Notes: generated from the sequence alone by a model not told the origin. A stretch of DNA of 64,000 nucleotides from Chloroflexota bacterium (GCA_043754535.1 JAYUUN010000048.1:64484-128483), one strand, 5' to 3'; positions 31,481 through 35,999 are shown, counted from the stretch's first letter. Numbers and translations are program-made.

Positions 31481-33859
31481 ATGCAAGTGATTCGCAAGCG
31501 ATGGTGGCAACTACTAGTTGCGGTAGCGGTGGTGGCCGTGCTGGTGTTGGTGCTGAAGCCGTTCGGGGGACAGGCGAGTGCGCCACTCTACCAGCTTGAG
31601 ACGGTCAAGCGCGCTGACTTGCTGGCAACGGTGGACTCTAGTGGCACGGTGCAGCCGGGGGCGGATGTGGCCGTCACCTTCCAGGCGGCAGGGCAGGTAG
31701 TAGAGATCAAGGTGCAGAACGGGCAGCGGGTGAAGAAGGGCGAGTTGCTAGCCCGCATCGATGCGCGGGAGCTAACCTTGCAGAACGCGCAGGCTCAGGC
31801 GGCTTTGCGCCAAGCGCAGGCTAACCTCACTCGCCTGCAAGGGGGAGCCAGCGCGAAGGACATCGCCAACGCGCAATCGCAACTGGCAGCGGCACAGGCG
31901 AAGTTCGCGGCGGTCAAGAGCGGCACTGCCAGCAGCCAGGACGTAGCCGCAGCCCAGGCTGCCCTCGACTCGGCACGGGCCAACTACAACAAGGTTAAGG
32001 CTGGCGCAACTGCCCAGGACGTGGCGGCGGTGCAGGCCCAACTCGATCAGGCGCGGGCTAATTACAACAAGGTTAGGGCTGGCGCAGGGGTGCAGGATGT
32101 GGCCGCTGCCCAGGCCCAGGTCAACCAGGCGCAGGCTCAACTCGACAAGCTGAAGCGCGGAGCGCGGGCAGAGGACGTAGCCGCCGCTCAAGCCCAGGTC
32201 GATCAGGCGCAAGCCAATCTCGCCCGCCTGAAGCAGCCAGCCAATGCTGCCGACCTCACTGCTGCGCAAGCAGCCCTCGACTCGGCGCAGAAGAACTACG
32301 AACGGGTGCAGGCCGGCCCCGATGCAGGGACGATCAGTGCGGCCCAGGCGCGAGTGGCGACAGCCCAGGCTAACCTCGACAGCACCCGAGCTAGTACGGA
32401 GAACAACATTAAGGCAGCGGTTGCCAGCCGCGACCAGGCTGACAACGCCTTGCGTAATGCGCAGGCCCAACGCGAAGACGCTTATCGCCAGACGCACGAT
32501 GGCAACGGCAACTTCAAGGATGACCCAGTAAACCAGCCCAACTACTGGAGGGGCATCTACGACCAGGCTTTGCGGGCCGAGCAGGACGCGACCAGCAACC
32601 AGGCGAAGGCGGCCAGTGCATACGATGCGGCGATCCAGGCTCAGAAGGCCAGTCTGGAGCAGGCTCAGGCCCAGTTGACCGACGCGAAGAAGCAGTTGAC
32701 CGAACTCCAGATCGGCCCCACTGCCGCCGCTCTTGCCACCACTCAGACCCAGGTCGATCAGGCAAGAGCTGCTCTGGACAAGCTAACGCGCGGGCCGGGC
32801 AAGGACGACCTGGCGGCGGCCCAGGCCCAGGTCGATCAGGCGCAAGCCAGCCTCAACAAGGTGAAGGCTGGCCCGACCCAGGACGACCTCGCGGCGGCTC
32901 AGGCCCAGGTCGATCAAGCAGCAGCGAACCTTGCCAAGCTGAAGGCTGGCCCAACCCAGAACGATATCGCAGCGGCTCAGGCTCAGGTCAACCAGGCGGC
33001 GGCCAATCTCGCCAAGCTGAAGACTGGCCCAACCCAGGCCGACCTCGCAGCGGCCCAGGCTCAGGTCGACCAGGCGGTTGCCAACCTCGACAAGGTGAAG
33101 CGTGGCGGCAGCGACAGCGACGTAACCCAGGCCCAAGCGCAAGTCGATCAGGCGCAAAATACGCTCAACGACCTGCTCAAAGGGGCGAAGGTAGAGGATT
33201 TGGCGGTCTCGCAGGCGGCCCTAGATCAGGCGCAGGCCGGTGCCGACCTCGCAGCCCTACGCCTCACCTACGCCACCCTGACTGCCCCGTTCGACGGCAT
33301 CGTAGCCCAAGCTCCCCTCAGCCTCGGCCAGAATGTTGGTCTCAACACCCTGGCGTTCACCGTGATTGACGATAGCCGCTACCACATTGACGTGTTCGTG
33401 GGCGAGAGCGAGATCAGCGGGATACAGGTTGGCGCAGAGGTCAGTGTCACTTTCGACGCGCAGCCCGACGTGAAGCTGATGGGCAAGGTGATCTTCGTTT
33501 CGCCGAAGGCCACCACCCAGGCGGGCAATGTCGTCACCTACCTGGTCAGCATTGGTGTACCGGGTGATGACGCACGCAAAGTAATGCGCCCCGGCCTGAC
33601 CGCCAACACCTCGGTCGTGCGCGACACCCGCAGTGGGGTGGTCGTCATCCCCGCCGCCTTCGTGCGCGCCGAAGATGAGGCAAACGTGGTCTACCTGCTC
33701 AAGGATGGCAAGCAGCAGCGCACGGTGATCAAGCTGGGCCTCAGCAACCAGGAGTACACCGAAGTGGTCAGTGGGCTGCAAGAGGGTGATCAGGTGATCA
33801 AGAACCCCAGCGTACCGCGCACTAGCCAGGTCAAACTGAACGGCGGAGGGGGTCGCTGA
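31481..33859 (+). CDS. HlyD/MacA-family periplasmic adaptor (membrane fusion protein) with a repeat-expanded helical insertion, 792 aa
   Basis: N-terminal TM anchor. The lipoyl halves ([24 protein letters not shown] and [11 protein letters not shown]) are separated by about 500 aa of Ala/Gln-rich repeats. Beta-barrel and MP domains lie at the C-terminus. The stop overlaps the ABC ATPase start. Confidence 0.85.
31769..33266 (+). repeat. about 14 tandem 26-27-codon repeats (consensus [26 protein letters not shown]) in two blocks flanking a non-repeat apex
   Basis: The units can be read directly in the translation. Near-identical DNA units occur at 32790-33110. Confidence 0.85.
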
Positions 33860-34617
33860 TGGCAACTACAGTTGAGCGCAGCAGTGCAGAACAAGCAAAG
33901 CTGGTGACAGCCAAGCCGGTGATCGAAATTGAGGAGCTAACCAAAGTCTATCAGATGGGTGAGCAGGAGGTGCGCGCCCTGAACGGCGTGAGCTTCCAGA
34001 TCATGGCGGGCGACCTGGTGGCGATCATGGGGCCGTCCGGTTCTGGCAAGAGTACGTTGATGAATATGCTGGGTTGCCTGGACACGCCAAGTAGCGGTCG
34101 CTACATCCTGGACGGCAACGAGGTCTCCAAGATGGACGACGATGCCCTGGCCGACATTCGCAACAAGAAGATCGGCTTCGTCTTCCAGCAGTTCAACCTG
34201 CTAGCCCGCACCAGCGCACTACAGAACGTAGAGATGCCGCTGATGTACGCGGGTGGTGGGGTGGCGGCCCGGCGCAAGCGAGCGTTGGAAGCTCTGGCGG
34301 CGGTTGGCCTGCAAGATCGCACCAACCACAAGCCGAGCGAACTGAGCGGCGGTCAGCAGCAGCGCGTTGCTATTGCGCGCGCCCTGGTCAGCGACCCGGC
34401 GATCATCCTGGCCGACGAGCCGACCGGCAACCTGGACAGCAAAGCCAGCGTCGAGGTGATGGCGATCTTCCAGCGGCTCAACCAGGAGCGCGGGATCACC
34501 GTCATCTTCGTCACCCACGAGCCAGATATTGCCCAGCACACCCGCCGCATTATCCGCATCCGCGACGGCAAGATCGCGGCTGATGAGTTGGTGCAGGGTC
34601 AGGTGATCGTGATCTAG
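33859..34617 (+). CDS. ABC transporter ATP-binding protein, MacB/LolD type
   Basis: Walker [11 protein letters not shown]-loop, signature [15 protein letters not shown], Walker [12 protein letters not shown] and H-loop FVTHE. Confidence 0.93.
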
Positions 34618-34649
34618 CCAGAGCAGCATCATACCAGGGGAGGTGAGTA

Positions 34650-34736
34650 GTGGACAAGGCAGCGGTGACGGAGCGGGATATGCAGTTGCTGGCCGAGATC
34701 GGTATGCTAAAGGGGTCGGCGCAGAAAGAGACATAG
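34650..34736 (+). CDS. candidate unannotated small ORF (28 codons, VDKAAVTERDMQLLAEIGMLKGSAQKET) coupled to the permease start
   Basis: GTG start with GGAGG 6 nt upstream. Its TAG stop directly abuts the permease ATG (TAGATG). It is absent from the ORF track. Confidence 0.3.
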   Translation: MDKAAVTERDMQLLAEIGMLKGSAQKET

Positions 34737-35999
34737 ATGAACCTGGTAGAAACAATGCGGATTGCCCTGCGCGCCCTCAACGCGAACAAGTTGCGGGCAG
34801 TGCTGACCATGTTGGGGATCATCATCGGCGTGGGGGCGGTGATCGCCCTGCTCGCGGTCGGCAAGGGGGCGCAGAAGAAGCTGCTCGATCAGGTGGGTGG
34901 CCTGGGTAGCAACCTGGTGGTTGTCTTGCCCGGCAACCTGAACCAGACCAGCGCAAACAACGTGGCGAAGAATGCGGGCGTGTTGACTGCTGAAGACGGC
35001 AAAGCTCTGATCAGCAGCAGCGTGCCGCACGTGGTTGCCGTCGCTCCCCAGTTCGACCGCTTCGCCCAGATCGTGCGCGGCAAGACCAACATCAACGCCC
35101 GTGTGGTTGGCACTACGCCAGATTACGCGCTCGTCCGCAACATGAACCCAACCCAGGGGCAGTGGTTTGGCCGCAAAGAGCTTGAGACGCTGGCGAACGT
35201 GGTCATGCTCGGCCCTAACGTCGCCGACAGCCTCTTTCCCGAAGCGCAGAACGGTGAGAACTACGCGGCGGTGATCGGCAAGACGCTGCGGATCAACAAC
35301 GCTACCTACCGGGTAATTGGGGTGATGGAGAGGAAGGGCAGCGGCATCTTCGGCTCGCCCGACGACTACCTCTACGTGCCACTCAGTAACGCTCAGGTCA
35401 AGCTATTCGCCAGCCGTGCTATTGGGGTGTACGGGCGCAACGTCAGCGCACTCAATGTGCAGCTAGACGACGCTGGCGACCAGGCTCTCAGCGAGGCCAT
35501 CGAGGGATCGAGCCAGGTGCTGCGCCAGCGGCACAAGATTTTGCGCCAGCAGGACGACTTTAGCATCATCACCCAGGCGGAGGTGCTAGGGACGCTGGCA
35601 ACGATCACCGCCACCCTCACCTTCTTCCTCGGCGCAATCGCGGGCATCAGTCTGCTGGTCGGCGGTATCGGCATCATGAACATCATGCTGGTCAGCGTCA
35701 CCGAGCGCACGCGGGAGATTGGCTTGCGGAAGGCGGTGGGGGCGAAGCGGCGCGACATCCTCACCCAGTTCCTGGTAGAAGCTATTGTCCTCAGCGTGAT
35801 AGGCGGCGCGATAGGCATCATCCTGGGCATTACTATCGGCAAGCTGGTTGATCTGACTGGCATCATCGAAACTATTGTCTCACCCGATTCGATCATCCTT
35901 GCAGTCGGCTTCAGCATCGCCGTCGGCTTGTTCTTCGGCATCTACCCCGCCCGCCGCGCTAGCCGCCTCAACCCCATCGAAGCCCTGCGCTACGAGTAA
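34737..35999 (+). CDS. ABC transporter permease, MacB/FtsX family
   Basis: MacB_PCD-like periplasmic domain between TM1 and TM2. C-terminal FtsX domain with RTREIGLRKAVGA and GIYPARRASRLNPIEALRYE. Confidence 0.92.
   Translation: MNLVETMRIALRALNANKLRAVLTMLGIIIGVGAVIALLAVGKGAQKKLLDQVGGLGSNLVVVLPGNLNQTSANNVAKNAGVLTAEDGKALISSSVPHVVAVAPQFDRFAQIVRGKTNINARVVGTTPDYALVRNMNPTQGQWFGRKELETLANVVMLGPNVADSLFPEAQNGENYAAVIGKTLRINNATYRVIGVMERKGSGIFGSPDDYLYVPLSNAQVKLFASRAIGVYGRNVSALNVQLDDAGDQALSEAIEGSSQVLRQRHKILRQQDDFSIITQAEVLGTLATITATLTFFLGAIAGISLLVGGIGIMNIMLVSVTERTREIGLRKAVGAKRRDILTQFLVEAIVLSVIGGAIGIILGITIGKLVDLTGIIETIVSPDSIILAVGFSIAVGLFFGIYPARRASRLNPIEALRYE

Follow-up and report, generated by a model that had tools for sequence, protein, structure and literature searches.

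The alpha-helical hairpins of membrane fusion proteins, also called periplasmic adaptors, are presented in textbooks as short connectors that dock to TolC. MacA, the adaptor of E. coli and A. actinomycetemcomitans (5NIK, 3FPP, 4DK0), runs from an N-terminal anchor through a split lipoyl domain with its hairpin to a beta-barrel and a membrane-proximal domain, has the TolC-docking RLS motif at its tip, and is partnered by a MacB-type transporter, which in E. coli is a fusion of ATPase and permease. The monoderm pumps Spr0693-0694-0695 and YknXYZ of B. subtilis consist of an adaptor, a separate ATPase and a permease, in that order, and have no outer-membrane partner. Spr0693 of S. pneumoniae is described in PMC5768738 as a hexameric nanotube in a bacterium without an outer membrane, proposed to carry substrate from the membrane into the wall, and its alpha-barrel is only 56 Å tall in a whole assembly of ~154 Å. 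Why bacteria without an outer membrane keep adaptor hairpins is an acknowledged puzzle (PMC4446572). Here we describe a pump of this general type in a 64,000-nucleotide (nt) stretch of DNA from a Chloroflexota bacterium (GCA_043754535.1, JAYUUN010000048.1:64484-128483; the whole stretch is referred to as the window, and positions are counted from its first letter), in which an adaptor of 792 amino acids (aa) shares the domain order of MacA, lacks the RLS motif, and has a hairpin insertion of ~507 aa, as compared with ~95 aa in MacA by profile alignment.

The family assignment of the adaptor was clear. The NCBIfam model TIGR01730 (RND_mfp) scored 146.5 bits against a cutoff of 94.9, covering aa 573-774, and Pfam matches were obtained for Biotin_lipoyl_2 (aa 63-94, E 1.2e-7), HlyD_D23 (aa 570-680, 40.1 versus a cutoff of 30) and HlyD_3 (aa 599-699, 60.4 versus 22.2). 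The split lipoyl domain, inserted helical hairpin and beta-barrel by which members of the family are recognized were all found in this way, and the secondary structure predicted by AlphaFold2 (AF2) agrees. A profile built from the adaptor and its 11 closest homologues identified MacA first when compared with the PDB (4DK1/4DK0, E 1e-42/1e-37; E. coli MacA, 1e-30), in an alignment that ran to profile residue ~739 and included the membrane-proximal domain. Among structures, the best Foldseek matches of the full-length AlphaFold model were to MacA in cryo-EM structures of MacAB-TolC (9qgy_G and 5nik_D), with target-normalised template modelling scores of 0.62-0.65. The membrane-proximal domain, the MacA-like fold and the MacB-type ATP-binding cassette (ABC) transporter encoded alongside are all features of the MacA type. 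Judged by its score of 69.2 bits versus a cutoff of 342 for the MacA equivalog NF008606, the protein is a member of the family and not a MacA orthologue, and it also fell below the cutoffs of the DevB family (TIGR02971, 54.3 versus 129) and of type I secretion HlyD (TIGR01843, 46.8 versus 208.65). The RLS motif RxxxLxxxxxxS (R-x3-L-x6-S) was absent from the whole adaptor sequence. Of the partner proteins, the ATPase matched Pfam ABC_tran (E 9e-35) and the N-terminal 227 aa of MacB (288 bits), and the permease matched MacB_PCD (E 2e-45), FtsX (E 1e-24) and MacB residues 255-646 (250 bits). These family matches bear out the earlier note on this DNA, made from the sequence alone, in its description of a MacAB-type operon, with the difference from E. 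coli MacB that the ATPase and permease of the Chloroflexia pump are encoded by two genes.

The insertion lies between the two lipoyl halves, from "...LARID" (ending at aa 94) to "APFDG" (from aa 602). Tandem Repeats Finder reported two stretches with a 78-nt period, 31936-32210 with 74% matches and 32802-33100 with 83%, and the encoded 26-aa units are in register on both sides, with ascending starts at aa ~102, 128, 154, 180, 206, 232, 258 and 284, and descending starts at aa 391, 417, 443, 469, 495, 521, 547 and 573, spanning aa ~102-300 and ~391-598. Most units scored E ~1e-11 to 1e-14 with a unit hidden Markov model (HMM) that had been built from 11 of the same units, and the scores show internal repetition only. 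The unit consensus is D-I/L-A-A-A-Q-A-x-V/L-D-x-A-Q-A-x-L-x-K-L/V-K-A-G-P/A-T-x-x, with I/L2, V9 and L16 and with A5, A12 and L19 at the a/d positions of a heptad pattern, such that each segment consists of three Ala-rich heptads and a Gly(-Pro)-Thr/Ser-x-x-Asp break. The residues at the unit boundary, Gly and then T/S-x-x-D, resemble a helix C-cap with an N-cap after it. In both AF2 runs the repeats were predicted to be helical, with a predicted local distance difference test score (pLDDT) of 81 for the full-length protein and 70 for the hairpin alone, and each arm comprised seven helices of ~22 aa separated by Gly-containing breaks of 3-5 residues, plus one 57-aa apex helix. The two apex helices (aa 282-338 and 355-411) are joined by a 16-aa tip loop (aa 339-354; 32495-32542) and were modelled at a pLDDT of ~90. 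The non-repeat apex that had been noticed earlier is in fact a hairpin of canonical length, made of 2 x 57-aa helices and the 16-aa loop.

A hairpin fold of the insertion is indicated by several lines of evidence. In the hairpin-only AF2 model, the helix limits i and j on the two arms sum to 691-695 (i+j≈693) in 8/8 helix pairs, and the full-length model has its breaks at the same positions. Among ~110 homologues with a recognisable apex, the lengths of the two arms (N-terminal lipoyl half to apex/apex to C-terminal lipoyl half) stand at ~1:1 over at least 12 length classes, as in the pairs 148/146, 178/175, 205/200, 232/227, 249/247 (the 792-aa adaptor) and 273/271, the few exceptions having arms that differ by roughly one unit or more. 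An alignment of 12 sequences contains clean 26-aa insertions and deletions (indels), usually on both arms and again with few exceptions. Moreover, ascending and descending unit HMMs trained on half of the proteins classified 89.5% of the held-out units correctly, and distinct arm classes would be anticipated where the structural environment is common to every unit of an arm. Based on the mirrored breaks, the 1:1 arm lengths, the matched indels and the arm-specific unit classes, we favour a model in which the insertion is an antiparallel hairpin of eight in-register two-helix modules, in line with the elongated hairpin that the earlier note had put forward. When the hairpin-only model was compared with the PDB by Foldseek, no significant match was found (best E 0.02), and the weak top-50 matches were to long antiparallel coiled coils (Smc, Rad50, MukB, Smc5/6, PrgA and colicin E3/E9), the alpha-barrels of TolC, OprM and SilC, and other long-helix proteins; no solenoid was among these top-50 matches, none of which is significant. 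These fold matches are only a hint in favour of the hairpin. Nothing was found when the hairpin alone was searched against PDB sequences by phmmer, and in the comparison of the full-length profile with the PDB only the last descending units align to the hairpins of MacA and EmrA.

The same evidence bears on the alternative raised in the earlier note and already disfavoured here, an alpha-solenoid in which adjacent 26-aa helices are packed together. Short Gly-Pro linkers between helices of ~22 aa are compatible with helix-turn-helix stacking of that kind, but the insertion has to leave and rejoin the lipoyl domain at one point, its repeat unit is a single helix and not a two-helix unit, and its arms are mirror-matched in their breaks and, across homologues, in their length. 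As neither Pfam repeat-family matches (TPR/HEAT/ARM-like) nor such proteins among the top-50 Foldseek matches were found, we regard a solenoid as highly improbable.

For the antiparallel hairpin, we propose the following mechanism. The Chloroflexia bacterium has an ABC exporter of the MacAB/YknXYZ type (type VII, mechanotransmission). The adaptor is anchored in the membrane and has the standard MacA set of a split lipoyl domain, a beta-barrel and a membrane-proximal domain, and its alpha-hairpin is lengthened about five-fold, with seven 26-residue segments leading out and seven mirrored segments leading back, below a canonical hairpin of 2 x 57 aa. With breaks at equal height on both arms, the hairpin is a chain of eight two-helix modules, and six such hairpins would pack, by analogy with the hexamers of MacA and Spr0693, into a stack of 12-helix rings, giving a tube of up to ~35 nm atop the pump. 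This height is a straight-rod estimate (7 x ~3.8 nm + ~8.5 nm = about 35 nm, at 1.5 Å per helical residue). Substrate would pass inside the tube from the cytoplasmic membrane across the layers of the Chloroflexota envelope, in which an outer-membrane channel is presumed to be absent, with no docking to TolC, and the tip, which has no RLS motif and a loop of variable length, fits a TolC-independent distal end. In PMC7332563, Chloroflexales are described as having multilayered envelopes, no BamA or lipopolysaccharide (LPS) genes, and an extra outer layer of 30-50 nm; PMC13319060 is also cited for a multilayered Chloroflexota envelope without BamA and LPS genes and with a possible extra layer of 30-50 nm. 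Hairpin length evolves mostly by the gain or loss of one unit per arm together. Toxic peptides, drugs and envelope components are conceivable substrates, and the sole pointer is a syntenic neighbour gene for a DHA2-type transporter of the major facilitator superfamily (MFS).

Taken as a whole, the reading of the locus as a MacAB-type exporter whose segmented, elongated hairpin serves as a hexameric exit tube has, in our estimate, a probability of about 0.6, and a number of points weigh against it. The confidence of the monomer models is moderate, as the pLDDT of 81 and 70 for the full-length and hairpin-only models is accompanied by predicted template modelling scores (pTM) of 0.48 and 0.35, respectively. 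Two units that are not mirror partners, aa 203-228 (32084-32161) and aa 413-439 (32717-32797), have a pLDDT of <50 in the full-length model; they are helical in the hairpin-only model, like all other units, and their low scores could arise from unit indels in the alignment or from register ambiguity or slippage between the arms. The distinction between extended and folded geometry is drawn from helix limits in predicted monomers, hexamer and tube formation are suggested by analogy only, and the presumed lack of a partner resembling TolC is based on published work on the phylum. Evidence of expression is weak, consisting of two short metatranscriptome contigs. It is also important to note that matched arms are needed by any insertion that returns to the lipoyl domain, so that they exclude a one-way solenoid and not every compact fold, and that the mirrored breaks equally permit a rod to fold at its joints.

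Folding at the in-register joints would turn the hairpin from a rod of ~35 nm into an accordion or a CusB-like four- or multi-helix bundle only a few nm tall, which might act as a plug, a cage or an extensible element. A precedent exists in CusB, whose hairpin folds back on itself (PMC4446572). Helix-breaking Gly/Pro occurs at every unit boundary, the breaks coincide on both arms, as a hinge needs, the pTM of the AF2 models is low (0.35-0.48) with one low-confidence unit per arm, and the Foldseek alignments to straight coiled coils have root-mean-square deviations of 20-80 Å. We nevertheless consider a folded bundle unlikely. The units of each arm form one sequence class, whereas a zig-zag would predict a periodicity of two units, given that alternate segments would have different neighbours, and the at least 12 length classes, with both odd and even differences in paired units, are easier to accommodate in a rod that can be stacked than in a closed bundle. 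The weak top-50 structural matches also speak against it, containing no helical-repeat or solenoid protein and being mostly coiled coils, TolC-type barrels and long-helix proteins. An extended hairpin could also be a strut, spacer or lever and not a conduit, holding or sensing an outer layer at a set distance or relaying mechanotransmission to a distal partner, as FtsEX does via the coiled coils of EnvC/PcsB. The mechanotransmission mechanism of MacB-type transporters is established, the envelope has extra layers, and a variable tip loop without an RLS motif may allow the distal end to bind lineage-specific envelope components. Such a role is in our view less likely still. Against it speak the conservation of every MacA domain, scoring as MacA and including the beta-barrel and membrane-proximal domains from which the hexameric ring on MacB is built, the tube formed by the monoderm precedent Spr0693, and the Ala/Gln-rich, small-residue helix faces, which suit multi-sided packing in a barrel.

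Comparison with described adaptors places the exit-tube reading in context. The best sequence-profile and structural matches are to MacA, and in gene order and, presumably, in having no outer-membrane partner the pump resembles Spr0693-0694-0695 and YknXYZ; homologues of the adaptor carry precomputed Pfam hits to PF25984, PF25989 and PF25990, which we take to be YknX-named domains. Relative to Spr0693, the 792-aa adaptor has a hairpin with approximately five times the residues of that of MacA, built of discrete repeated modules. The 26-aa unit corresponds to the motif G-x-x-x-(E/D)-(I/L)-x-x-A-x-A-x-(L/V)-x-x-A-x-A-x-L, which occurs once per arm in adaptors of the YbhG/EmrA/HlyD type, and the NCBIfam model PRK03598 ("secretion protein HlyD"), presumably the YbhG entry, matches the adaptor in five separate stretches. 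HlyD itself has a broken helix within one arm. Adaptors of this type have one or two segments per arm and pair with TolC, whereas the 792-aa adaptor has 7+1 per arm, arranged with mirror symmetry. EmrA (4TKO, with a hairpin of 127 Å) is alike in fold and in sequence match, but is without a membrane-proximal domain. Outer-membrane factors of the TolC family have comparably long antiparallel helices, TolC, OprM and SilC being among the weak matches of the hairpin, and the exit-duct role proposed here is normally that of TolC; they differ in that the hairpin has no beta-barrel and no sequence relationship to them and would build a different oligomer, one made from hairpins.

We speculate, tentatively, that in Chloroflexota the missing TolC was replaced by the adaptor itself, as a tube of stackable 12-helix rings (one unit per arm per protomer) in which the number of rings is matched by evolution to how far the outer envelope layer lies from the cytoplasmic membrane, such that hairpin length might be a genome-readable ruler of envelope thickness, with joints that might flex or extend. 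If the hairpins do form tubes, export across a thick envelope of many layers would be possible without TolC, the tube would be a protein nanotube of natural origin and programmable length, and envelope dimensions could be predicted from sequence; if they are folded compactly, the adaptor architecture would still be new. In either case, in a phylum whose envelope architecture is disputed, MacA-type hairpins form a continuous series of lengths that reaches at least ~610 aa and are modular, with mostly mirrored gain and loss of units. The interest of the finding, which is moderate, lies in this phylum-wide architecture, the single gene being less special as a well-conserved representative, among the longer ones, of a common family.

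The earlier note had considered the structure unusual, and a survey of homologues did not sustain this for the lineage. A word-indexed search identified 3826 relatives among 8000 candidates scored, and of the best 120 homologues, 99 were at least 600 aa long, 75 at least 700 aa and 21 at least 792 aa. Those with names were nearly all from Chloroflexota (Chloroflexia, Herpetosiphonaceae, Thermomicrobiales, Kallotenue, Chlorohelix and Anaerolineae), and most homologues had 6-15 units; the homologue of Kallotenue papyrolyticum (P0073) is 632 aa long. In order to obtain a survey that was not biased by the repeats, the C-terminal 208 aa alone were compared with 1.84 billion representatives and the best 150 matches were ranked. 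The start of the C-terminal domain among these 150 varied continuously from ~156 to ~700 aa (median 316), and the 792-aa adaptor, with its domain starting at 585, fell in the top ~5%. Long adaptors (600-880 aa) are thus common in Chloroflexota over a continuous range of lengths, and the repeat number is ordinary for the lineage in part, its place in the top ~5% being the qualification; the adaptor is extreme relative to every characterised adaptor and, within its phylum, normal if long. The database labels of the homologues are generic ("HlyD family" or "efflux RND transporter periplasmic adaptor subunit"). No description of repeat-extended adaptors of this kind was found in full-text literature searches and two adaptor reviews, which does not prove its absence elsewhere, and the design seems to be undescribed.

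Several homologues merit separate mention. The adaptor at L005:6001-8637 (JBBRPH010000007, a Chloroflexia metagenome-assembled genome, MAG) has a 611-aa insertion and belongs to the same adaptor-ATPase-permease operon; its tblastn match covers 879 aa and its open frame extends to 911 codons. In P0121 (912 aa), P0122 (1045 aa) and P0229 (894 aa), the C-terminal adaptor domains were matched in two separate stretches, and by this pattern they may be duplicated or fused adaptors. With regard to the tip loop, which is 9-25 aa long in the homologues, the motif H-D-x-N-G-N-F is common to the closest homologues (P0001-P0004 and P0006) and a looser motif, D-x-(N/S)-G-N-L, is present in P0005, P0007, P0008, P0011 and P0015, while more distant homologues have unrelated tip loops of 9-25 aa. 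The motif may represent a lineage-specific distal docking site.

In view of the fact that the sequence is tandem-repetitive and derived from a short-read MAG, the repeat number could in principle be an artefact of assembly, in which tandem repeats were collapsed or expanded. The evidence leaves this with a negligible likelihood. The units are 43-82% identical to one another in DNA (82% for the best pair and 45-75% for most), and an extended direct-repeat search with 12-nt seeds gave diverged copies only. The units at 32790-33110, described in the earlier note as near-identical, are 73-82% identical, and no exact direct repeats of at least 15 nt linking them were found in that search. A separately assembled Chloroflexia MAG (L001, JBBROH010000007), syntenic and with ~93.5% DNA identity, encodes an orthologue that is also 792 aa long, with 31 substitutions and no indel. 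In addition, four metagenomes (sediment, unspecified, glacier and freshwater), which come from different studies, yielded Logan contigs that each cover 31400-34000 unbroken, without a gap and with 0-12 substitutions; the sediment contig (X1) is identical to the window and probably derives from its source sample. The assembly error that the note had allowed for is effectively excluded by the L001 genome and these four contigs.

The same data address the proposal that the repeats are recombination-prone and variable in length, which fails on short timescales: identity between units is at most 82%, the length is conserved in L001, the contigs are ungapped, and the ratio of nonsynonymous to synonymous substitution rates (dN/dS) is ~0.08. 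Overall, the ratio is 0.075; in the two arms it is 0.084-0.088, no different from the C-terminal domains, and the adaptor and its arms are under strong purifying selection. No repeat-number polymorphism was detected in the metagenome contigs, the only "joint" being a 22-nt side match from a different contig, which is probably another organism's homologue. The number of units changes only over long evolutionary times, usually by one unit per arm together.

Table 1. Coordinates of the pump genes, the domains of the adaptor and neighbouring features in the window
Feature	Position	Strand	Description
DHA2-type MFS transporter gene	29777-31309	+	510 aa; Pfam MFS_1, E 1.7e-51; upstream of pump genes
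Candidate extended -10 promoter element TGGTATAAT	31411..31421	+	Read from sequence, in the 171-nt gap after the MFS gene
Adaptor gene	31481-33859	+	Open reading frame (ORF), 792 aa; MacA/YknX-type periplasmic adaptor (membrane fusion protein)
N-terminal membrane anchor	31493..31555	+	aa ~5-25; hydrophobic stretch; AF2 helix at 5-23
Lipoyl domain, N-terminal half	31667..31762	+	aa 63-94; Pfam Biotin_lipoyl_2
Ascending arm	31763..32323	+	aa 95-281; seven helical segments of ~22-26 aa; AF2, unit HMM, Tandem Repeats Finder
Apex	32324..32713	+	aa 282-411; 57-aa helix, 16-aa tip loop, second 57-aa helix; AF2
Descending arm	32714..33274	+	aa 412-598; seven helical segments; hairpin-only model, Tandem Repeats Finder
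C-terminal lipoyl half, beta-barrel, membrane-proximal domain	33275..33820	+	aa 599-780; HlyD_3, HlyD_D23, TIGR01730, MacA alignment
ABC ATPase gene	33859-34617	+	ORF, 252 aa; like LolD, YknY and the nucleotide-binding domain of MacB; separate polypeptide
MacB-type permease gene	34737-35999	+	ORF, 420 aa; extracytoplasmic MacB_PCD domain and FtsX transmembrane helices

The positions of the genes and adaptor domains are given in Table 1. The start of the ATPase gene overlaps the adaptor stop by one base, and a 119-nt spacer (34618-34736) separates the ATPase and permease genes. At related loci the gap between these two genes is likewise long, mostly 200-550 nt, an upper bound as it was measured between tblastn match limits. 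The order adaptor-ATPase-permease was kept in ~30 loci, mostly of Chloroflexota, at any adaptor length (419-879 aa). No lipobox cysteine was identified in the N-terminal anchor of the adaptor, and no second adaptor paralogue was found within the window. Upstream of the adaptor gene, the ATG is preceded at 8 nt by a ribosome-binding site, GAGGGG, and the candidate promoter TGGTATAAT was missed by a consensus scan because of its poor -35. Together, TGGTATAAT and GAGGGG in the upstream gap suggest that the pump operon may have a promoter of its own.

In an ice metatranscriptome (X11), two short contigs align to 32494-32740 and 33740-33920 with 99-100% identity, and fall in the adaptor gene and at the adaptor/ATPase junction, respectively. 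They are a hint that the pump operon is transcribed in situ, with carry-over of DNA being possible. The DHA2-type MFS gene is a syntenic neighbour rather than an established part of the pump. It occupies the same upstream position in the three closest relatives (L001-L003), with 49-95% identity, and this arrangement suggests that the MFS transporter and the MacAB-type pump may constitute a conserved two-pump locus.

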